Positions 7,650-51,234 of a DNA stretch of 64,000 nt are shown here, in pieces (the first letter of the stretch is position 1; each line of letters starts with the position of its first letter). The notes under the pieces are model-generated. The model had not been told where the DNA came from and did not search any database. It saw only the letters and a program-made list of their open reading frames with translations. The DNA lies in assembly GCF_028282165.1 (NCBI RefSeq), contig NZ_JANQIM010000037.1:33982-97981 (forward strand), in the 5' to 3' direction. This stretch comes from Winogradskyella sp. (lineage in GTDB: Bacteria > Bacteroidota > Bacteroidia > Flavobacteriales > Flavobacteriaceae). The translations under genes and the position numbers were made by a program.

Positions 7650-10091
7650 ATGAAGAATATCTTTCTAATCTTATTTATACTAATAACTAGTTTTGGCTAT
7701 ACTCAAGAATGTAATAGTGTCTTAAGTGGAGAAATCTCCGATTTTCATGATAATACTGCATTAGAAAATGCCTCAATAAAACTTATTGGTACAAATAAGA
7801 TCACCATATCGGATAAACAGGGAAAATTTAGGTTTAAAGATTTATGTGATAAAACATATCAGATAGAGGTGTCTCACATAGCCTGTGAAACGAAAATAAT
7901 AACAGTGAAAGTCCAAGGAGATACTCATAACGTAATTAAACTAGAACATCATTTGGAAGAACTAGATGAGGTTAATGTAACAGGAAAAGAAAGAAAGGAA
8001 ACAAAAACCGCTCAAGAGACGCTTATAAAAAGTGATATCCTAGAGCAATACAGTAGCCTTTCCTTAGGTGATGCGTTAAGGGAAGTTCCAGGCGTATCTT
8101 CTATAAATACAGGAAATACGATTGTTAAACCCATGATAAATGGCCTACATAGCAGCAGAATTTTGATCATGAATAATGGTGTACGTTTACAAGATCAGGA
8201 ATGGGGAATTGAACATGCACCAAATGTAGATATTAACAGCGCTAGTCAAATCTCAGTGATCAAAGGGTCTGGTGCTCTAGCTTATGGTGGTGATGCCATT
8301 GGTGGTGTCGTCGTTATTAATCCGAGCAGAATTATTAGAAAAGACACACTTTACGGACGCACCATTATTGGTGGTCAAACCAATGGCCGTGGTTATAATT
8401 TCACTTCAAGTCTAAATAAAAATTACGAATCAGGATGGTTTGCTAAAGTTCAGGGTTCTTATAAAAGAAATGGCGATTTTAAAGCACCTGATTATAACCT
8501 TACCAATACTGGGTTAGAGTCGACAGGCCTATCTGCACGGTTTGGCAAAAAGACTTTTGAATCGGGATTCGAAGTTTATTATAGCTATCTAGATAATGAA
8601 ATTGGCATTTTAAGATCTGCCCATATTGGTAATATAGGGAATTTGGCAGCTTCAATCAATGCACCAGTTCCAATTTTTATAAATGATTTTAGCTACGATA
8701 TCAATGAACCAAAACAAGAAGTGACACATCATCTCTTTAAGGCTTCATATTATAAACGCTTTAAGAACTTTGGAAAAGTTGACATTCAGTACGACTACCA
8801 GAACAATCATCGTTTTGAGTTCGATGTTCGCCGAGGTGGTAGAAGTGGAAAAGCCGCTATTGACCTAGAACTAGAAACCCACACCATTTTGGCAAATGTT
8901 AAAATTGATAACAATCTAGAACGAAAGTACAACTTTGGTTTGTTGGCCAGATATCAAAATAATTTTGCAAACCCCGATACTGGTGTAAGACGTTTAATCC
9001 CAGATTATGATAAATACGACTTTGGTATTTATGCTAATACAGAGTGGGCTATAAACGATAACTTAATTGCGGATGCTGGGTTGCGATACGATTTTAGCAG
9101 AGTAGACGCTTTAAAATTTTATAGACTTTCACGATGGGAAGAACGAGGTTATGATGAAGATTTTAGGGATATCATTATTGGTTCTGTAGTGGCTGGTGAA
9201 GTTGTTGATGGTATCGATGCTAATGCTTCACAATATTTAACTAACCCGATATTTGACTTTCATAATATATCTGCTGCTGTAGGTGTTAAATACGAATTCA
9301 ATGCAAATCATTGGATGACTTTAGGTTATAATTTGGCTAGTCGTGCGCCTAACCCTTCCGAGTTGTTTAGTGATGGCGTGCATCATTCAGCGGCAAGATA
9401 TGAGATCGGAGATCTTCGTATTGAAAGCGAACAGTCTCATCGTATATCTACAACTTATGGCTATATCACTTCAAAACTTAATGTACAGGTAGATGCTTAC
9501 TATAATCATATCAATAGTTTTATCTACTTAGTTCCCACTGAAGTAGGAATACTTCCAACAATAAGGGGGCCATTTCCTGAATGGGAATATGTACAGACCC
9601 AAACTAATGCCACACTTTTTGGTGTAGATGTTAGTGCAAATTATCAGGTTGGACCTCGCTGGAATATAAATCACAAATCATCTTTTATAAAGGGGTATGA
9701 CGTGAAAGCCGATATACCATTGATTGATATTCCACCATTTGCAACTTTAAACGGCATTACATATACCAATACCGACTGGTATAATTTTAATGCAAGTTTA
9801 CAATCGGAGTGGGTCTTTGAGCAAAATGAATTTCCAGATGAGTTTAATTATTCAGTACCAATAGCAGATGAGGATGATATCGTTGTCGACCTTGGTCCAC
9901 CTCCAGCTTATCATTTAATGCATTTTCAAAGTGAAATAACCTTACCTGTGTTTAAACAATCTAGTTTGGATATTCGATTAAGCGTTGACAATATTTTTAA
10001 TACAAACTACAGAAATTATTTAAACCGATTACGTTTTTTTGCAGACGAAATGGGAAGAAATATAAGATTACAAATTCAATTGAATTACTAA
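7650..10091 (+). CDS. TonB-dependent outer-membrane receptor with N-terminal carboxypeptidase-regulatory-like domain
   Basis: 813 aa with a signal peptide, a plug-region motif (ETLIKSD...PGVSSINTGNTIVKPMINGL) and a C-terminal beta-barrel ending in an aromatic residue (...LQIQLNY). Confidence 0.9.
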   Translation: MKNIFLILFILITSFGYTQECNSVLSGEISDFHDNTALENASIKLIGTNKITISDKQGKFRFKDLCDKTYQIEVSHIACETKIITVKVQGDTHNVIKLEHHLEELDEVNVTGKERKETKTAQETLIKSDILEQYSSLSLGDALREVPGVSSINTGNTIVKPMINGLHSSRILIMNNGVRLQDQEWGIEHAPNVDINSASQISVIKGSGALAYGGDAIGGVVVINPSRIIRKDTLYGRTIIGGQTNGRGYNFTSSLNKNYESGWFAKVQGSYKRNGDFKAPDYNLTNTGLESTGLSARFGKKTFESGFEVYYSYLDNEIGILRSAHIGNIGNLAASINAPVPIFINDFSYDINEPKQEVTHHLFKASYYKRFKNFGKVDIQYDYQNNHRFEFDVRRGGRSGKAAIDLELETHTILANVKIDNNLERKYNFGLLARYQNNFANPDTGVRRLIPDYDKYDFGIYANTEWAINDNLIADAGLRYDFSRVDALKFYRLSRWEERGYDEDFRDIIIGSVVAGEVVDGIDANASQYLTNPIFDFHNISAAVGVKYEFNANHWMTLGYNLASRAPNPSELFSDGVHHSAARYEIGDLRIESEQSHRISTTYGYITSKLNVQVDAYYNHINSFIYLVPTEVGILPTIRGPFPEWEYVQTQTNATLFGVDVSANYQVGPRWNINHKSSFIKGYDVKADIPLIDIPPFATLNGITYTNTDWYNFNASLQSEWVFEQNEFPDEFNYSVPIADEDDIVVDLGPPPAYHLMHFQSEITLPVFKQSSLDIRLSVDNIFNTNYRNYLNRLRFFADEMGRNIRLQIQLNY

Positions 10092-40064: not shown

Positions 40065-40178
40065 GGTTATTTGTCATTGCGAATCCCAAAGTTTTGGGAT
40101 GTGGCAATCTTTTGATTTATAGTTAAATTTGCAATTTAAAAAGATTACTTTGTCATTTCATTCATCGTAATGACATTT
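40065..40178. repeat. REP-like hairpin cluster (gtcattgcg...atcccaaagttttgggat...ggcaatc; gtcatt...aatgac)
   Basis: Nested inverted repeats of the '..gcaatgac' type, also seen at 41279-41316. Confidence 0.5.
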
Positions 40179-40727: not shown

Positions 40728-40740
40728 TTTTAAAAAGTTA

Positions 40741-40768
40741 GAAGGTAGAAGAACGAAGCCTGAAGTTC
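40741..40768. repeat. heptamer array (GAAGNNN)x4, flank of four-helix-bundle gene 1
   Basis: GAAG occurs at 40741, 40748, 40755 and 40762, an exact 7-nt period. Confidence 0.85.
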
Positions 40769-40781
40769 GTTATTACCTTTA

Positions 40782-41138
40782 TTAATGTTTTATCTTATTT
40801 CTGAATGCTATAGTCATATTCATTGAATCAAAACAGTCCTTATAATAGTTCTCAAATGTTTTTGTTTTCAAATAATTTCTTCTATTTGCTTTATGCAAAC
40901 ATGTTACTACTTCCGCAATAGATCGAATCGAATATCCCAAAAACTTTCTATATTCTGGTCCTGATTGCAAAATAGATCCTTCAGAAATATTTAATGCTAT
41001 AGAATCTGAAGCTCTTCGTAATTGAGAAGATAAATTAAAGTTTTCCTTATCAGGAAACAAATCAGCAAGCTCATTCATATCATCTCCCAAATCCATTGCT
41101 TTTTGCCAAATTAACAAATCTTCAAACCTAAACTTCAT
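40782..41138 (-). CDS. four-helix-bundle protein (23S rRNA intervening-sequence protein family, Avd-related)
   Basis: 118 aa with MKFRFEDLLIWQKAMDL...QLRRASDSIALNISEG, characteristic of the TIGR02436/PF05635-type family. Confidence 0.8.
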   Translation of the reverse strand: MKFRFEDLLIWQKAMDLGDDMNELADLFPDKENFNLSSQLRRASDSIALNISEGSILQSGPEYRKFLGYSIRSIAEVVTCLHKANRRNYLKTKTFENYYKDCFDSMNMTIAFRNKIKH

Positions 41139-41179
41139 AATATTAGTATAGAAAAATCAATTTTTGTTACTATAGACAT

Positions 41180-41277
41180 CTTCCAACTTCAAACTTCAAA
41201 CTACAAACTCCAAACTTCTCACTTCTCACTTCCGACTCCAAATACCCAAAACCAAAAACCCAAATGCCAAACTCAAA
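41180..41277. repeat. heptamer array, 14 units of (CTTC-like + NAA), inverted relative to 40741-40768
   Basis: cttc caa cttc aaa cttc aaa ctac aaa ctcc aaa cttc tca cttc tca cttc cga ctcc aaa tacc caa aacc aaa aacc caa atgc caa actc aaa. This is 98 nt = 14 x 7, almost G-free on the plus strand. Confidence 0.85.
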
Positions 41278-41278
41278 A

Positions 41279-41316
41279 GATTGCTTCGTCCCAAACGTCC
41301 TTGCAATGACACGCGC
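41279..41316. repeat. REP-like element (gattgcttcgtcccaaacgtccttgcaatgac) splitting the heptamer array
   Basis: It has the '..ttgcaatgac' terminus. Heptamers resume at 41331-41351 (ctcc aaa ctcc taa cttc taa). Confidence 0.45.
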
Positions 41317-41351
41317 ATTATTATTTTGTACTCCAAACTCCTAACTTCTAA

Positions 41352-42587
41352 CTATATGTTACTACTAATCGTTTCTATCACCCAATCCTTAAATGAATCA
41401 TTCCATGTCTCATAACTCTTGTAAAACTGTTCTTTATCGTACCAATACAAAAACAAAACATCCTTGGGCGAAATGTTAACTAACAGTTTATGTATTAAAT
41501 CACGATGCTTCGTTGACAGTGATGAATGTGGCTGATGCAAAGCAAAATATATGGCTTGATCTACCATATCCTCAATTTTATAGGCATTACTGCGCTCAAG
41601 CCTCTCAAGGTAAAGCTCAGCTCCCATTATTTGTTTTCGGGATTTGATATCTATTTTGTTGAGATAACTCCTAAACAAGGACTTGCTATCAAGGATTTCT
41701 TTTATCGGATGCTCTGCATCTTTAAGCAATTGGTATAGTTCAAATTTTTTAATGCGATCGTAATTGGGTGTTGTTACCATATACTCCAAATCACATTCGA
41801 TAATGATATGGCTCTTTAATTTATCGACCAGTTCTGGTTGGTTTATGTGGTATATCAGAACATCATGAATGGTATCTTTAATGGCTTCTTTATAGACCTT
41901 ATCACTTTCAAAAACCAAAATGGGCTTAATGAAGTCCCTCAATAAGTAAACACCACCAAAGGCCCTCGTATAAAAGGAATCAGTAGAAAAATGCAACGGA
42001 CCGAGGTTTAAATCCCTATTGCGCAAATCGCCATAAGTCTTTGCAGAATCCAACAACTCTTTATGTATTTGTTCATCAATAAAATTATTTTCTGTTTTAA
42101 ACTTATCGACGAGTTTTAGTTGTTCTTTTTGCTTTTCTTCGAGATTATCTATTAGTCTAAAAGTAATACTTACATCTTCATATTTTAAAACATCCAAGGG
42201 CTCATAAAACACGTCAATATCCTGGTCAAAATCAATACAAATAGCAGAATCTCTCGTAATATCATTTATTTTGCTTCCGTGTGTTCTGAAGATATGTAGC
42301 ATCATTTCCCTATCGAAGGAATGAAACGGTAAATAAACGGGTTTTCCTTTTTGCAATGGTGAGATAATGATGCCATGTGGATTAGCATCACCATGATTTA
42401 AATAATGAACATCATTTTTTTCTTCTGCAACCTCAGGACTCCAACCCACACCATCAATAGAAAAAGATTTGAGCTTTGTTGCTTTAAATCCTAGAGTTTT
42501 CAAGCACTTATTGTAACGCTCCACCAACTTTCCGCTTACGGGAATAAGTTCACTTCTATATAGATTTGCTTGTTTTAATTTGTCCAT
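41352..42587 (-). CDS. hypothetical protein (411 aa), operon member
   Basis: The track ORF extends to 42647, but its first 20 codons (MSFLRKQESQ...) translate the REP hairpins. MDKLKQANLY at 42587 is the likely start. Confidence 0.55.
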   Translation of the reverse strand: MDKLKQANLYRSELIPVSGKLVERYNKCLKTLGFKATKLKSFSIDGVGWSPEVAEEKNDVHYLNHGDANPHGIIISPLQKGKPVYLPFHSFDREMMLHIFRTHGSKINDITRDSAICIDFDQDIDVFYEPLDVLKYEDVSITFRLIDNLEEKQKEQLKLVDKFKTENNFIDEQIHKELLDSAKTYGDLRNRDLNLGPLHFSTDSFYTRAFGGVYLLRDFIKPILVFESDKVYKEAIKDTIHDVLIYHINQPELVDKLKSHIIIECDLEYMVTTPNYDRIKKFELYQLLKDAEHPIKEILDSKSLFRSYLNKIDIKSRKQIMGAELYLERLERSNAYKIEDMVDQAIYFALHQPHSSLSTKHRDLIHKLLVNISPKDVLFLYWYDKEQFYKSYETWNDSFKDWVIETISSNI

Positions 42588-42649: not shown

Positions 42650-43228
42650 TTAAACTAATTGATGTATCTGAGCATATTGAATCAGCATAATCGTTTTTGC
42701 ATCGATGATTTCTTCATTTTCTATCATTTCTATTGCTTTTTGAAATGGCAGTTCCAATAGTTCTATTTCTTCATGCTCACTTTCTAAACCACCACCATCA
42801 TTTGTTTTCATCTGGTCATTATATTCTGCAACAAACAAATACATCTTTTCAGTCAACGCACCTGGCGAGGTGTAAGCTGTTAACACTTGCTTGGCTTCTT
42901 CAATCTTATAGCCTACTTCTTCCTCAGTTTCCCTTATAATGGTTTGAAGGGGCGAATCGTTGCCGTCGATAGCACCAGCACAGACTTCAATGGACATACT
43001 ATCCTTGGGGTTGTTCTCATAAATTGGCATTCGGAATTGTTTAGTTAAAACAACGGTGCCTTTATTCTTGTTATATAATAAAATAGCAGCGCCATTGCCG
43101 CGATTATAGGTTTCACGTTTTAGGCGTTTCCATTCACCATTTTTAAATTGAAAATCGTACTCAATACGATCCAACTTCGCCCAATCGTGGGAGAGGTTGA
43201 TGTGTTCTATGTTTTTTATATTTTTCAT
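42650..43228 (-). CDS. Nudix hydrolase (NudF/NudK-like nucleoside-diphosphate-sugar pyrophosphatase)
   Basis: Nudix box GAIDGNDSPLQTIIRETEEEVGY (GX5[D]X7REUXEEXGU). The track start at 43273 overlaps the AAA gene; MKNIKNIEH at 43228 abuts the AAA stop instead. Confidence 0.8.
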   Translation of the reverse strand: MKNIKNIEHINLSHDWAKLDRIEYDFQFKNGEWKRLKRETYNRGNGAAILLYNKNKGTVVLTKQFRMPIYENNPKDSMSIEVCAGAIDGNDSPLQTIIRETEEEVGYKIEEAKQVLTAYTSPGALTEKMYLFVAEYNDQMKTNDGGGLESEHEEIELLELPFQKAIEMIENEEIIDAKTIMLIQYAQIHQLV

Positions 43229-43232
43229 GCGA

Positions 43233-45194
43233 TTAATCCAGCTTTTCAAAACGCGCTCTAGCTTCCGTTTCAATATTTAGTTGGTCAATTCTTGCATCGA
43301 CTTTACGTTTAAAGTCCGTATCTGCAATAGTAGCCACATTATCTAAATAGCGCACCACTTCTTGTCGTCTTATGTCACTAAAGTCAAGCCCTTTCATATT
43401 GGTACGCATCAATTCTTGTAGCATACCAAATTTGGTATCGTAATCTTTTTTGAAATAAATTTCAGGATTTTCGAACCAATCGGGTTCTAAATCAAAATCC
43501 GTTAATCGTAAGGACACCGCTTTTTGAATATTCCTTACATCGCGTGATGAAAAGAATGGAAATATCTTTTGAATCTCAGTATATAAATGCGCATAGAACA
43601 TATGGTCATCGTCATCATATTTCTTAGCAACCTTTTCAAAAGTATCAAGCACACGTTCTTCGGTAGGCTTATCTATTTTTTCTAAGATTTCACCAAGGTT
43701 CTTCGCCACTTTTTGGGCATCCAAAAAGTTGTAATCTTCAGGATTATCCATGTTAATAAAATTGGGCATGGTATCCTCCAGCTTTCGCCACCATAGGTAA
43801 TCTTGGTCTACAAAATCCTTTTCATTGCGTGCGCCATCTATTTTAAAACGACCTTGTACACGCGAAATCACGGCTTTATCTAACATTTCGGGCAAATTGG
43901 TGAACAAACCGACGGAGCTATTACCATAGTTAACAGCGTATGCACCTTCGGTATATCTTAAAAAGACACCGATAACTTCTTTCACACCTGCCGAGACGCC
44001 TTGTGTCGTTCGCTCTTGCAAATTATTTTCCGCATCATCAATAGGGGCAAAAATTAAGCGTGTTGGATCCTGTAAGGGTTTCATCCACTCTACCATCTTC
44101 TCTGCTGAGCCGCCTTGAAAAGTACTTACAATTGTATCTGGCATGGGATGAAACAAAAATGGAATTTCTAAATTCTCACTATGTTCCTTCAGTCGTGTAG
44201 CTATGGCGGCAATCAACATACTTTTCCCTGTACCTGGAATGCCATAGCCCATAAACACAGGCATAAAACCGCCCAACTCTTGGAAAGGATTCTTTTTGGC
44301 TTCAAAATCATAGCTCAAAAGACGCTCCGTTAAACGTCTAGCAAAGTGCTTTGCATCTTTATTTCCGACAATTTGCTCAAACTGTACTTTATTGAATTCT
44401 ACACTGACCGCTGTACCTTGAAAGACATTATTCCACCCATCAACCGCAAAATCGGAATTCTCTAGTTTATAAGCTCTATCTACAATGGTTTCAGTGTACT
44501 CTAGCGTACTTTTACGTAACTGAATTTCGTCAATTAAAGCTTCAAAATATACAACCGTAAAGTCAATAACATCTTGATCTGTCTTTATAATATCCGGATG
44601 CCCTAAATACTTGTCATAATAAAACAATTGACAAGAGATTCCTTTAAGTGGTGAAATTAAAGAGACCTCTGGAATACCGGCAAACTTCTGTTTCATTACC
44701 GATAAGTCGTCTGAAGCATGGGGTTTTAGATCATGCAAAATTTTATAGGCTGTAGCAAACAACATAAAGGCCGTGGCGGTTTGCATTTTGCTTTCATATT
44801 CTCGTTTTCCTGCATTGTCTAGAGCTGATCTATTTTCGTACAAGGTGGATAATCCCGAAGCATCATAATAACTATCCTTAATCCATAAGCCAAGTGTAAT
44901 ACCTTCTTGTACACCAAACAAAGCATGGTTGAGATGTATAGGAATTGCCACCGATTCTGGTAACAAGCGTTTCTTTAAGGCTAAAATGGTTTTTGAAACG
45001 GAGGTCACAGCAACACTACTGCCATTATTGGCTCTGGACAGATATAAAAGAATCGACTCATCCTTACCGTCATTATCCCTATTCTTAGCCCGTTGACTTT
45101 GCTCCCATTGAATGGACTTTAGGTAAGATGTCGCTTCATCACGAAGCATATCGAGTTCATTTTGTTTTATAGGAAAGGTTGAGTTGTGTTCCAT
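43233..45194 (-). CDS. AAA-family ATPase with a large unknown N-terminal domain
   Basis: 653 aa with a single AAA module (Walker A GIPGTGKS, probable Walker B LIFAPIDDAE, then TNLPEMLDKAVISRVQGRF). About 330 aa precede it without a recognisable family. Confidence 0.75.
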   Translation of the reverse strand: MEHNSTFPIKQNELDMLRDEATSYLKSIQWEQSQRAKNRDNDGKDESILLYLSRANNGSSVAVTSVSKTILALKKRLLPESVAIPIHLNHALFGVQEGITLGLWIKDSYYDASGLSTLYENRSALDNAGKREYESKMQTATAFMLFATAYKILHDLKPHASDDLSVMKQKFAGIPEVSLISPLKGISCQLFYYDKYLGHPDIIKTDQDVIDFTVVYFEALIDEIQLRKSTLEYTETIVDRAYKLENSDFAVDGWNNVFQGTAVSVEFNKVQFEQIVGNKDAKHFARRLTERLLSYDFEAKKNPFQELGGFMPVFMGYGIPGTGKSMLIAAIATRLKEHSENLEIPFLFHPMPDTIVSTFQGGSAEKMVEWMKPLQDPTRLIFAPIDDAENNLQERTTQGVSAGVKEVIGVFLRYTEGAYAVNYGNSSVGLFTNLPEMLDKAVISRVQGRFKIDGARNEKDFVDQDYLWWRKLEDTMPNFINMDNPEDYNFLDAQKVAKNLGEILEKIDKPTEERVLDTFEKVAKKYDDDDHMFYAHLYTEIQKIFPFFSSRDVRNIQKAVSLRLTDFDLEPDWFENPEIYFKKDYDTKFGMLQELMRTNMKGLDFSDIRRQEVVRYLDNVATIADTDFKRKVDARIDQLNIETEARARFEKLD

Positions 45195-45199
45195 CTGTT

Positions 45200-45233
45200 T
45201 AGTCTTCAGTTCGCAGTGCCCAGTCTACAGTCA
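45200..45233. repeat. heptamer array (YAGTNNN)x5, core CAGT, flank of four-helix-bundle gene 2
   Basis: tagt ctt cagt tcg cagt gcc cagt cta cagt cac. CAGT occurs at 45207, 45214, 45221 and 45228. Confidence 0.85.
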
Positions 45234-45239
45234 CTTTTA

Positions 45240-45608
45240 TTATTTAAATTTATCAGGGTTATTCATCATGTAGTGGATGAGTTTGCCTATTTCTTCGCTT
45301 TTTAAATGCAATTCATTCTTATCTTTTTCAGAAATATATTCGCAAGCTAATGCAAAGTCCAGCCACAATTGAGTCTCTGAGTTTTCACTATCAGCATCAG
45401 ACATTTTGCTTTTAAAATGTTTCTCATATTGTCGTTTTCTGTAGCCCTCTGCAATATTCGAACATACAGACCGACTCGATCTAACCATTTGCGATGTTAA
45501 TCCAAACATTTCAGATTTCGGAAACTGTTTAGTCAAATGAAAAATATCCATTGCTAGATTGAAACCTTTTTGATATGCTAATAATGTTTTAAATGACATA
45601 TTGCTCAA
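45240..45608 (-). CDS. four-helix-bundle protein (23S rRNA IVS protein family)
   Basis: 122 aa with ...AYQKGFNLAMDIF...QMVRSSRSVCSNIAEGY... It sits inside the operon, between the 348-aa gene and the AAA gene. Confidence 0.8.
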   Translation of the reverse strand: MSNMSFKTLLAYQKGFNLAMDIFHLTKQFPKSEMFGLTSQMVRSSRSVCSNIAEGYRKRQYEKHFKSKMSDADSENSETQLWLDFALACEYISEKDKNELHLKSEEIGKLIHYMMNNPDKFK

Positions 45609-45615
45609 TTCTCTT

Positions 45616-45650
45616 ACTGCATACTGCCAACTGAAACTGCATACTCATAT
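45616..45650. repeat. heptamer array with core ACTG (inverted relative to 45200-45233)
   Basis: actg cat actg cca actg aa actg cat actc ata tact. Periods are 7, 7, 6 and 7 nt. Confidence 0.8.
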
Positions 45651-45652
45651 AC

Positions 45653-46699
45653 TTACTTTTCAATTTTCAAATCCGCTAATTCAACTGGTGGAATAGCCAG
45701 GTTGTTCATAATCTCTGGTGTTTTATTGTACAATAACTGTATAATTCTATGTGGTGCAAATACATAGCGTTGTCTAAACGTATTCCCCCATTTTTGAAAG
45801 ACTTGCTTGCTAAAAAAACTCCCTTCCTTAAATTGGCTTTGCGAACTGAGTTCGTCTACCTTAAAGGATACTACAAAAGACTCAAGCGGTATGGTCTTCT
45901 TTGATATACCATCTAATATGGCATGGGTGACTTCGTTTTCATCCTTTGCAAATACATTATGAATTGGTCCCAGGTCTATGCGCCTTATCAACTTTGGCAA
46001 TACCTTGGGTAATCGCTTATCAATGGCATAAGCCATGGTATCTAAAGCCATTTCACGATCCGATGTGTTCTTTAAAACACTGTAAATCTCGTCCTTATAG
46101 CCTTGTACATCTTTTCCATCATAGTTAAAATACATGTAACAAATAAATGGTCTGTTGTGTGTGACGTCGTAAAAGCTCCAACTCACTAAATGCGCAGCAG
46201 GTGAACCCTTGGGTGCATCAATAATCTTGCCTTGCACGAAACGATTGAAAATATATTCCTTCCTTGCAGATGTATAATACACTATCGAAGCCGCCTGGAA
46301 TAACTTTCGTTTAGAAATAGGCTGTTTTTTTCGCATTAAGGTATCCAAGAATTCTTCTTTTAGAACATCAATATCTGTCAGTCTACTGAGAAACTCTTCC
46401 CTAAGTTCTAAATCATTGAACAAGTAACGGAACTCTAGATAATTTGGAAAACTAGAATCTGTTAGATCCACCTTCATATTCTCATCATCATCGTACATAT
46501 ACTTAACTCGCATAGCCTCAATTGAATACAATAGTAAATCTGTGTATTGCTTAAACAACAAAACCTCTTGCTGATTTAGTATTTGTTTGGCTTGAACAGC
46601 AGTTATGAGTTCTTTGAGCGTAAAATCTATCATTTTGTGATAGAATACATATTGCTCTTTAGAATCTAAAGTTGCTGAATCTAGTGGTGTTACAATCAT
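45653..46699 (-). CDS. hypothetical protein (348 aa), operon member
   Basis: Long ORF, co-directional with its neighbours. I recognise no family. Confidence 0.55.
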   Translation of the reverse strand: MIVTPLDSATLDSKEQYVFYHKMIDFTLKELITAVQAKQILNQQEVLLFKQYTDLLLYSIEAMRVKYMYDDDENMKVDLTDSSFPNYLEFRYLFNDLELREEFLSRLTDIDVLKEEFLDTLMRKKQPISKRKLFQAASIVYYTSARKEYIFNRFVQGKIIDAPKGSPAAHLVSWSFYDVTHNRPFICYMYFNYDGKDVQGYKDEIYSVLKNTSDREMALDTMAYAIDKRLPKVLPKLIRRIDLGPIHNVFAKDENEVTHAILDGISKKTIPLESFVVSFKVDELSSQSQFKEGSFFSKQVFQKWGNTFRQRYVFAPHRIIQLLYNKTPEIMNNLAIPPVELADLKIEK

Positions 46700-46703
46700 G
46701 GTT

Positions 46704-46723
46704 TAGTTCGCAGTTTGCAGTCA
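46704..46723. repeat. short heptamer array tagt tcg cagt ttg cagt cac (solo copy, same orientation and sequence type as 45200-45233)
   Basis: It shares agttcgcagt and the ending cagtcac with the 45200 array. Confidence 0.7.
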
Positions 46724-46777
46724 CAGGATGAGTTACATCGTTACTTTGACGGGATACTGTTTACTCATTGCTTTGAT

Positions 46778-48848: not shown

Positions 48849-48862
48849 CAATAAAAAATATT

Positions 48863-48898
48863 AAAAAAAAAGGCTAGCGTTTGCTAGCCTTTTTTTTT
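48863..48898. terminator. bidirectional rho-independent terminator
   Basis: An A8 run, then aggctagc-gttt-gctagcct, then a T8 run, between convergent genes. Confidence 0.85.
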
Positions 48899-48913
48899 AA
48901 TAATGCCAAATCA

Positions 48914-50605: not shown

Positions 50606-50636
50606 TATGTGTTAGTTTATTGTATATTGTTTATAG
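50606..50636. repeat. T/A-rich ~7-nt periodic array (tatgtgt tagttta ttgtata ttgttta tag...)
   Basis: It flanks the disrupted four-helix-bundle gene. It shares the unit TTTATAG with the reverse complement of 51028-51056. Confidence 0.5.
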
Positions 50637-51024
50637 TTAATTATTGCTTTTTTTAAATTTTTGTCCTTTTATTTTTGAGTTTCTTAAATAGTACATTAAT
50701 GCGCCAATTTTATTTTTAACCGTTTCACACATTTCGGATAGTTTTTCAAAATCAGTTTGACTTATATAGCCTTTATCTAATAGACTTTAACTCGCTGGCA
50801 GATCCTTTGGAGTAACTCAGGAAGTTATGGAATTCTTTCGTTCCATCTCTATCAAAACCTTCTGCTATGTTATCCATAATCGAACCAGAACTTCCTTCCA
50901 TCTGATTTCTTAGCCTAGAGTTATTTATAATTTGAGTAGAATTAATAAGGGTATCGACAAACTGACAAATCTTCCTAGCTCTCTGCCAAACTTCCAAGTC
51001 CTCAAACTTTTCAATACGCGCCAT
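50637..51024 (-). pseudogene. disrupted four-helix-bundle (23S rRNA IVS family) gene
   Basis: The first 81 aa are family-typical (FEDLEVWQRARKI...GSIMDNIAEGF...SASELKS), then IR-stop at 50773. The family C-terminus (LLDKGYISQTDFEKLSEMCETVKNKIGALMYYL...) continues in another frame down to 50637. The E..YI spacing is about 5 aa shorter than in the two intact copies, suggesting a short out-of-frame deletion. Confidence 0.65.
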
Positions 51025-51027
51025 GGA

Positions 51028-51056
51028 CTATAAACCTTTGACTCTAAACATCTAAA
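51028..51056. repeat. ~7-nt periodic array ctataaa cctttga ctctaaa catctaaa
   Basis: It lies immediately upstream (in gene orientation) of the disrupted four-helix-bundle gene, inverted relative to 50606-50636. Confidence 0.45.
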
Positions 51057-51234
51057 CACGTCCTTTTAAAGCATTAAACACCCAAGCTATTGCAAAAAAA
51101 CCAATACCTACGGTTGCAAATCCCCAACCTGCAACATCATCGTATCGGTAAGCACCCATGAGAATCAATAAAACACCCATGATTATCATTAGTACCGTAG
51201 CCCAAGCAAGTACGGTATTTTTATTCATCGCCAT
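51052..51234 (-). CDS. small 2-TM membrane protein
   Basis: 60 aa with two hydrophobic helices. Confidence 0.4.
   Translation of the reverse strand: MAMNKNTVLAWATVLMIIMGVLLILMGAYRYDDVAGWGFATVGIGFFAIAWVFNALKGRV

Follow-up and report, generated by a model that had tools for sequence, protein, structure and literature searches.

Why should a small gene of a protein-coding operon be enclosed between two inverted arrays of seven-nucleotide repeats? The question is raised by a 64,000-nt stretch of DNA from Winogradskyella sp. (contig NZ_JANQIM010000037.1, positions 33,982 to 97,981; this whole stretch is called the window here). An earlier note, made from the sequence alone, had pointed out a four-helix-bundle (4HB) gene flanked by inverted CAGT/ACTG heptamer arrays. 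The arrangement was confirmed by inspection of the sequence and by a scan for arrays, with the end of the gene corrected to 45599: the start codon is the ATG at this position and not the TTG at 45608, because the orthologous proteins begin with MSFKTL. The encoded protein, H4b, matched the Pfam family PF05635 with 114 bits (cutoff 33.8; E 5e-33) and TIGR02436 with 105 bits (cutoff 24), and it is similar in sequence to two solved members of the Protein Data Bank (PDB), the five-chain entries 2RLD (E 4e-8) and 2GSC (E 1.5e-7). In this study I favour, with moderate confidence, the reading that H4b is a cassette of the intervening sequence (IVS) type resident in a messenger RNA (mRNA) operon, with arms that probably pair in the transcript and that RNase III would cleave.

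The coordinates of the features are summarized in the table below. On the plus strand, the downstream array (45200-45234) reads TAGTCTT CAGTTCG CAGTGCC CAGTCTA CAGTCAC. On the coding strand, it has ACTG at 45231, 45224, 45217, and 45210 and ACTA at 45203, with a spacing of exactly 7 throughout, and only 5 nt separate its end from the ATG (45194) of the AAA ATPase gene. The upstream array opens exactly at the stop codon of the gene for a 348-aa protein, and Tandem Repeats Finder reported a period of 7 and 5.3 copies for it. On the plus strand, ACTG occurs at 45616, 45623, and 45630 (spacing 7) and at 45636 (spacing 6), followed by degenerate ACTC and ACTT units; on the coding strand, CAGT starts at 45639, 45633, 45626, and 45619, and the GAGT and AAGT units precede them. 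Both arrays are intergenic, imperfect tandem direct repeats with a 7-nt period, in which the conservation between units is limited to the 4-nt core.

As the earlier note had proposed, the architecture equals that of an element at 40.7-41.3 kb, whose gene (H4a) belongs to the same family and also lies between inverted arrays. In total, the window has three 4HB cassettes with three different cores, and one of them is decayed. Each consists of a ~120-aa 4HB gene and two inverted arrays of 3-6 heptamers, in which a conserved core of 4-5 nt is joined to variable spacer bases; the 4HB paralogues are only ~26% identical to one another. The whole window was scanned for 4-mers recurring at least 3 times at a spacing of 7, and the counts were compared with Markov shuffles. 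There were 13 arrays against 2.6 +/- 1.4 expected, and 10 of the 13 are located beside two of the 4HB genes, at 40.7-41.35 and 45.2-45.65 kb. A genome-wide feature of the organism, resembling the short tandemly repeated repetitive (STRR) sequences, was rejected for the window, where the arrays are confined to the cassette flanks.

Table. Features of the window and of related plasmid loci (positions are those of the window)
Feature	Position	Strand	Remarks
H4b gene, 4HB family PF05635 23S_rRNA_IVP / TIGR02436	45240..45599	(-)	119 aa, ATG 45599
H4b 5' (upstream) heptamer array	45616..45650	(-)	coding strand CAGTNNN x4 + degenerate GAGT/AAGT units
H4b 3' (downstream) heptamer array	45200..45234	(-)	coding strand ACTGNNN x4 + ACTA
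348-aa host gene, upstream neighbour of H4b cassette	45653..46699	(-)	conserved
653-aa AAA ATPase gene, downstream of H4b cassette	43233..45194	(-)	PF00004
Decayed gene-less heptamer hairpin, 447-aa/348-aa junction	46700..46777	(-)	3' arm 46700-46724, 5' arm remnant 46752-46766
First cassette, H4a	40735..41353	(-)	gene 40782-41138; 3' array CTTC-type 40735-40765; 5' arrays GAAG-type 41180-41237, extras to 41353
Third cassette, H4c, decayed	50606..51059	(-)	truncated/frameshifted 4HB ORF 50773-51024, remainder to ~50660; 5' array GTTTAGA-type 51025-51059; 3' array ATAAAC-type 50606-50650, abutting the ATG of the ABC-F gene
Nostoc edaphicum plasmid cassette			arrays GGAGCAG...CTGCTCC
N. punctiforme plasmid cassette			arrays GGGGAGCA...TGCTCCCC
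Leptolyngbya plasmid cassette			upstream purine-rich, downstream pyrimidine-rich
Geminocystis plasmid cassette			arrays GGGAAAA...TTTTCCC

Are the two arrays able to form a stem? In the minimum-free-energy fold of the H4b region, 45616-45638 pairs with 45201-45229 and the gene is looped out. The arms contain an inverted repeat (I4) of 20 nt with 80% complementarity, and the duplex of the two flanks reaches -28.5 kcal/mol against -19.5 +/- 3.4 for shuffled sequences (z -2.7), while neither array folds by itself. The flank duplexes exceed the shuffles in most intact copies found in relatives (z -2 to -7). Within one operon, the cognate pairs of the H4a and H4b arms give -40 and -26 kcal/mol versus about -15 for the cross pairs; the two stems are orthogonal.

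Is the cassette common in related bacteria? The comparison set consisted of 80 species-level Flavobacteriaceae genomes with the orthologous operon (loci L001-L080), which have the gene order ABC-F ... 447 aa - 348 aa - AAA - (NUDIX) - DUF6638 - 182 aa - 564 aa in common. A cassette census was made by an iterative profile search over all open reading frames (ORFs) of these loci. The H4b type is confined to the 348/AAA junction in 13 of the 80 loci, with orthologues 78-87% identical, and five of the 13 copies are truncated or frameshifted. The H4a type is confined to the DUF6638/182 junction in six loci. In most of the relatives, the 348-aa and AAA genes are adjacent without a 4HB gene. These results supported the view that the operon is conserved and the 4HB gene an optional cassette within it. 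Every copy of either type is co-oriented with the operon, and nearly all copies keep the core seen in the window, CAGT/ACTG for H4b and GAAG/CTTC for H4a. Thus, the earlier suggestion that the cores are element-specific holds for the orthologues, and the consensus of metagenomic relatives also tracks the protein (see below).

The number of units and the spacer bases vary among the copies. In some species, the upstream array extends into the 3' end of the 348-aa ORF, and the truncated H4b copy of L047 has lost its downstream array. The earlier note had named the finding that would refute its proposal, namely arrays at identical positions in many relatives, with no association with such genes and no variation in length or sequence. 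The outcome was mixed. Arrays are indeed present at the corresponding junctions of relatives, in many cases with no 4HB gene, but their length and sequence vary extensively. In other species, 13 unrelated genes (lipoprotein-like and others) are inserted at the 348/AAA junction, and they have no inverted arrays. Thus, the arrays are specific to the 4HB cassettes and their hairpin forms and are not a general property of insertions at this junction.

What remains where the gene is absent? Many junctions without a 4HB gene hold both arrays back to back, as in L070 (ttttCAGTcgCAGTcgCAGTcttCAGTACTGcgaACTGcatACTGaagACTGaagACTGaagACTaaataATG). These gene-less hairpins fold well (L070, -35.8 kcal/mol, z -5.9; L004, -27.5, z -5.6; L011, -25.6, z -5.5), and their arms show locus-specific complementarity, the mean being -22.1 kcal/mol for cognate versus -17.8 for non-cognate arms (permutation p < 1e-4). 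In L020 and L075, the 3' end of the 4HB ORF remains between the arrays, and thus gene loss by internal deletion is documented. Judging from these sequences, the gene-less heptamer hairpins may be relics of 4HB cassettes, a reading which appears to be new. Hairpins with different cores can occupy one junction in different species.

The same kind of hairpin accounts for a third short array, which the earlier note had located at 46704-46723 and described as a solo array, perhaps a duplicated end. The array was confirmed, and its identity to the 45200 array is 80-81%; the two resemble each other because they share the 3'-arm consensus, ...ACTGnnnACTAAAC..ATG. However, the sequences of relatives indicate that this array is no duplicated end but belongs, as the 3' arm, to a gene-less hairpin of inverted arrays that has decayed in the window. 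The hairpin is intact at the orthologous 447-aa/348-aa junctions of L003-L010 and L035, while the window copy has a decayed 5' arm and folds weakly (-10.2 kcal/mol, z -0.7). An RNAalifold analysis of this junction hairpin gave a conserved structure with only 2 compensatory pairs, because the aligned sequences are too closely related. That the 348-aa gene is itself bracketed by inverted arrays, as had been remarked, is a by-product of two neighbouring elements, and the polarity is opposite to that of a cassette.

How old are the cassettes? The median dN/dS of intact copies is 0.06 for H4b and 0.09 for H4a; dS is saturated, as it is for the host genes on either side, and the pairwise identity of the 4HB proteins correlates with that of the host genes (r 0.62 and 0.49). 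Since the divergence is parallel to that of the host genes and dN/dS is low, the cassettes are old residents that have been lost many times, and not the recent footprints of repeated insertion and excision that had been offered as one explanation. The substitution patterns indicate that they are under purifying selection. The cassette-bearing taxa are scattered over a neighbour-joining tree of five host proteins. Such a patchy distribution would also be expected of a DNA-level mobile element, with the arrays as multi-site terminal inverted repeats and the gene-less hairpins as non-autonomous derivatives similar to miniature inverted-repeat transposable elements (MITEs) or as excision scars. 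This explanation is rather improbable. It would suit the different content of the 348/AAA junction in the three closest relatives, where the window has the cassette and L001 and L002 have a GAAG/ACTT hairpin and a lipoprotein gene. It would also suit the different-core hairpins at the same junction and the co-inheritance of gene and arrays. IVSs have long been suspected to be mobile (PMC4990558), and GIY-YIG cassettes in the same operon also have their own inverted repeats. However, there are no target-site duplications at the array ends and no near-identical copies at other sites in the loci examined, whole genomes being outside the scan. Each type is limited to one junction across the 80 genomes, the paralogues in the window are too dissimilar, the divergence parallels that of the host genes as described above, and no catalytic domain can be recognised in the 4HB protein. 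The turnover at the junction is explicable by homologous recombination through the conserved flanking genes, and homologous replacement via these flanks is its simplest explanation. Integron attC sites and transposon ends or MITEs were rejected on anatomy as well, since there are no duplications and the 'empty' sites retain both arrays.

The IVS-type reading draws on the resemblance of H4b to the IVSs of ribosomal RNA (rRNA) genes in Leptospira, Coxiella burnetii, Brucella, and Azospirillum (L086). Their ORF is likewise a member of the S23p / PF05635 family, has the direction of the host transcript, and lies between complementary arms. These arms consist of tandem heptamers, which are of the CAGAGGA/TCCGTCC type in Azospirillum and have the sequence GACAGAT in Coxiella (PMC4990558). 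A variable number of units, an ORF prone to decay, and ORF-less hairpin versions are also common to the two systems. Warrier et al. (2016) reported tandem GACAGAT heptamers upstream of the S23p ORF of the Coxiella IVS, with a unit number that varies among strains, and RNase III cuts the stem of this IVS at the first repeat (PMC4990558). The 4HB ORF of Azospirillum lipoferum AZO_p2 (L086) is enclosed by a 23S rRNA gene (the LSU family of Rfam, 2540 bits) and is a bona fide IVS; its arrays, CAGAGGA/CGGAGGA and TCCGTCC/TCTGTCT, form a duplex of -78 kcal/mol.

There are also differences. IVSs lie within the 23S rRNA gene, in helix 9, 25, or 45; this is so for L086, which served as the positive control, whereas H4b has protein-coding neighbours and its host RNA is a protein-coding operon and not helix 45 of 23S rRNA. 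The complementary termini that form a stem around the insert are present in H4b. Thus, H4b is not a strict member of the rRNA IVSs because it is not in rRNA, while all other testable features are shared. Purifying selection acts on the ORFs of the window type; the ORF of Coxiella is in decay and is probably not translated. In the window, no Rfam match reached the gathering thresholds, and the region of 40-52 kb gave only sub-threshold, terminator-like matches at 48.8-48.9 kb.

Is the bracketing by inverted arrays restricted to this operon? It recurs around the 4HB family in the three phyla sampled. In all sets taken together (n=86), 79% of the upstream flanks and 81% of the downstream ones have arrays of at least 3 core units, versus 4% of control windows, which is an enrichment of about 20-fold; the commonest number is 3-4 exact units, or 4-5 when degenerate ones are counted. 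A tblastn search over plasmid records gave mostly cyanobacterial matches. The flanks of five of these were inspected, and four have heptamer-type upstream arrays with downstream complements. A metagenome search with a 6-sequence alignment yielded 66 loci (GC 31-65%), in whose 100-nt flanks the lag-7 autocorrelation is 0.39 and 0.38, with a lag-14 harmonic, as compared with 0.25 at 400 nt away and 0.24 in the ORF. Metagenomic relatives with the same heptamer have 69% protein identity, while those whose heptamers differ by a distance of at least 3 have ~52% (rho -0.33). The heptamer consensus tracks the identity of the 4HB protein.

Might the arrays, at least the 3' ones, serve the downstream host gene instead, as start-codon-proximal translational control elements unrelated to the 4HB gene? 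Such a role has been proposed for the TAACTGA repeats, which have the same placement in Beggiatoaceae, Cyanobacteria, and Bacteroidetes (MacGregor 2015, PMC4679880). Between the 3' arrays and the next ATG there are 1-10 nt, and these arrays have a common ...ACTGAAGACTAAA.. ending, contain stop codons in each of the three frames, and persist without the 5' arm in L007 and L060. I nevertheless consider this very unlikely. It leaves unexplained the matching inverted arrays upstream of the 4HB gene and the enrichment of arrays at 4HB flanks. The same architecture exists inside 23S rRNA, where nothing is translated downstream, and other genes inserted at the same junction have no arrays.

Several observations weigh against the IVS-type reading. 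Cleavage by RNase III has been demonstrated only for the IVSs of rRNA (Coxiella and others, PMC4990558) and is presumed for H4b. The H4b stem of the window is itself modest, as its z of -2.7 indicates, and the folds of the whole regions are no stabler than shuffles (z -0.9 and +0.1), a measure that is uninformative for the significance of the fold. The cognate arms of gene-bearing cassettes pair no better than the arms of orthologous cassettes (p 0.24-0.62). Thus, their complementarity rests on the shared core and not on base-by-base compensation, and complementarity of the core only is the pattern expected of repeated protein-binding sites. G:U wobbles are commoner on the sense strand (175 versus 132), as would suit pairing in RNA, although this is weak evidence because the loci are not independent and the bias itself is modest. 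Finally, the Oscillatoria plasmid cassette (L083) has same-sense, not complementary, arrays.

Some of these points suit another explanation, in which the arrays are candidate tandem binding sites for a putative ring-shaped oligomer of their own 4HB protein. One subunit would bind each heptamer core in RNA or single-stranded DNA, in the manner of TRAP; the protein would regulate, protect, or process its own transcript; and inversion and pairing would be secondary. TRAP-type ring proteins bind short RNA repeats at intervals, GAG triplets in the case of TRAP. The analogy is functional only: the arrays have a short conserved core and free spacers in tandem, and the adjacent gene would encode a ring-shaped homo-oligomer, but the fold is unrelated and RNA binding by PF05635 proteins is hypothetical. 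The conservation of the core but not of the spacers, the lack of locus-specific compensation beyond the core in gene-bearing cassettes, the usual unit number of 3-4 exact or 4-5 with degenerate units, the separate core of each of the three cassettes in the window, and the co-variation of the heptamer consensus with the protein would all fit binding sites. So would the five chains of 2RLD and 2GSC, the pentameric toroid (PMC4990558), and the homology to Avd (PMC10053308), a protein of diversity-generating retroelements (DGRs) that is essential for DGR retrohoming. However, gene-less hairpins persist in many genomes without an adjacent cognate gene, the co-variation is equally expected from simple co-inheritance, and the Coxiella protein is probably not made at all (PMC4990558). 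I regard binding sites of this kind as a possible but doubtful explanation.

If H4b is an IVS-type cassette, how would it operate in the transcript? Every gene in the window from 38 to 51 kb is on the minus strand. On the coding strand, no intrinsic-terminator-like site was found in the intergenic gaps from the 447-aa to the 564-aa gene, while a strong terminator hairpin exists at 48859-48902, downstream of the ABC-F gene, with A and T runs on both sides. This terminator likely marks the upstream boundary of the cassette-bearing transcription unit, and thus the cassettes are likely to be co-transcribed with the host operon. The cassette would be transcribed by read-through, and the two arrays would pair in the RNA, looping out the 4HB cistron. 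Because the arms are repetitive, several pairing registers would be possible, and therefore the stem may tolerate gain or loss of 7-nt units. RNase III would then cut the stem and separate the cassette from the flanking cistrons, while the differing cores may prevent cross-pairing between stems when one transcript has several cassettes. After deletion of the gene, the two arrays would persist as a short intergenic hairpin, of which the 46.7-kb array would be a decayed example. The co-transcription, the pairing in vivo, the cleavage, and any benefit to the host are inferred here. RNA punctuation, which was among the possibilities raised in the earlier note, is the most plausible role of the arrays.

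A much wider proposal can be made only tentatively, and I do not expect it to hold in full: PF05635 genes and inverted heptamer arrays may form one self-contained, very widespread module, whose ring-shaped protein recognises its own core and which loops out of any rRNA or mRNA host transcript. In that case, the STRR, TAACTGA, and GGGAATC repeats known from Cyanobacteria, Bacteroidetes, Beggiatoaceae, and Xanthomonas would represent relics of the module or non-autonomous copies of it. The STRR heptamers were reportedly described in cyanobacteria by Mazel and co-workers in 1990. These simple sequence repeats resemble the arrays described here in their tandem 7-nt units, conserved core, 7-nt step changes, and occasional inverted pairs; they are found in Cyanobacteria and Bacteroidetes, and the ACTGA core is common to both. 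MacGregor (2015) found the TAACTGA repeats just upstream of start codons (PMC4679880), and the GGGAATC and GGGGAYT repeats of Rehm et al. (2015) include inverted pairs (PMC4692102). However, such repeats have been reported as free-standing direct repeats of unknown function that are not tied to PF05635 or IVSs, whereas the arrays described here are inverted pairs around a 4HB gene or its gene-less hairpin. Full-text literature searches gave no paper linking heptamer arrays in general to the PF05635 family, and the supplement of MacGregor (2015) has no mention of S23 or four-helix proteins. A general association of PF05635 genes with inverted heptamer arrays appears to be new and unpublished.

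Other known systems were also compared. Avd shares a homologous four-helix-bundle fold, and H4b passes the Pfam bAvd-like threshold (43 versus 40 bits). An identity with DGR Avd was rejected: there is no reverse transcriptase, template, or variable repeat nearby, and the NCBIfam Avd equivalog model gave 29.6 bits against a cutoff of 80. Repetitive extragenic palindromes and bacterial interspersed mosaic elements (REP/BIME), together with RNase III sites in polycistronic mRNAs, are likewise stable inter-cistron hairpins that vary among relatives, but the arms described here are heptad-structured and able to enclose a gene. The anti-phage defence models of PADLOC gave no match for the 4HB proteins and marginal matches only for the AAA and NUDIX neighbours.

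The two other cassettes of the window differ in preservation. The H4a protein matched PF05635 with 97 bits (E 1e-27) and TIGR02436 with 92 bits. Its upstream region (41139-41353) is compound, with period-7 arrays of the GAAGT type at 41180-41237, the GGTTTTT type at 41238-41264, and the GGAGT/GAAGT type at 41330-41353, and it also holds a GTCATTGC...GCAATC half-element; the H4a orthologues, unlike the window, have a single array within ~40-90 nt of upstream flank. The H4c fragment matched TIGR02436 with 63.7 bits over profile positions 1-70 of 109 only, and a period-7 segment lies at 50615-50652 on its downstream side. A second class of cassette consists of ~100-aa GIY-YIG nuclease genes at the DUF6638/182-aa junction (L011:13330-13730, L042, L060, and L078). 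These genes are bracketed by their own inverted repeats, GTCATTCCGCA..TGCGGAAT upstream and ..GAATGAC downstream. Gene-less 'GTCATTGCG...CGCAATGAC' hairpins exist at other junctions, including the 182-aa/564-aa junction of the window, and a half-copy lies at ~41290-41320.

The earlier statement that every intergenic junction in this part of the operon carries an array could not be upheld: the DUF6638/NUDIX and NUDIX/AAA junctions abut or overlap without a spacer, and the 182-aa/564-aa junction (40065-40178) has a non-heptamer inverted repeat, GTCATT...AATGAC. The 348-aa protein has no Pfam or NCBIfam match; it has 1244 homologues, and its identity is 80-94% across Winogradskyella and Psychroserpens. 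The AAA ATPase gene is present in 77 of the 80 loci, and the remaining three are contigs that end before it. The NUDIX gene (42650-43273 in the window) is variable, with two allele classes of ~72-85% and ~44-55% identity to the window protein, and it is absent from many Psychroserpens-like genomes; in some loci, the AAA and NUDIX genes are separated by inserted DNA of up to 1.3 kb (a 442-aa membrane protein). At the 447-aa/348-aa junction of L040, L046, L053, L060, L063, L072, L075, L078, and L080 (~7800-8000), whose hosts are Psychroserpens- and Lacinutrix-like, there is a conserved structured element of ~150 nt with the sequence …GGTCAGGCTTTCC…GGATGCCGTTGCAATCCTTAACGC, which creates spurious small ORFs (clusters C1, C2, and C5). 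L065 (7423-7997) has at the same junction an inserted gene for a MazF/PemK-like toxin, preceded by an antitoxin-like ORF. Thus, this junction accepts diverse small modules.

What would the cassettes mean for the biology of the family? The role of the four helix bundle / S23p family, whose structures have been solved, the origin of the ORF-bearing IVSs of rRNA, and the excess of intergenic heptamers are possibly one phenomenon. Intergenic heptamer repeats are over-represented in several phyla and have been noted since 1990 without an explanation; cassettes of this type may explain them. If this is true, inverted heptamer arrays would provide an annotation rule, marking IVS-type cassettes or their relics, and the cassettes would add to operon biology a class of genes that are optional, insulate themselves, and reside between core-operon cistrons.

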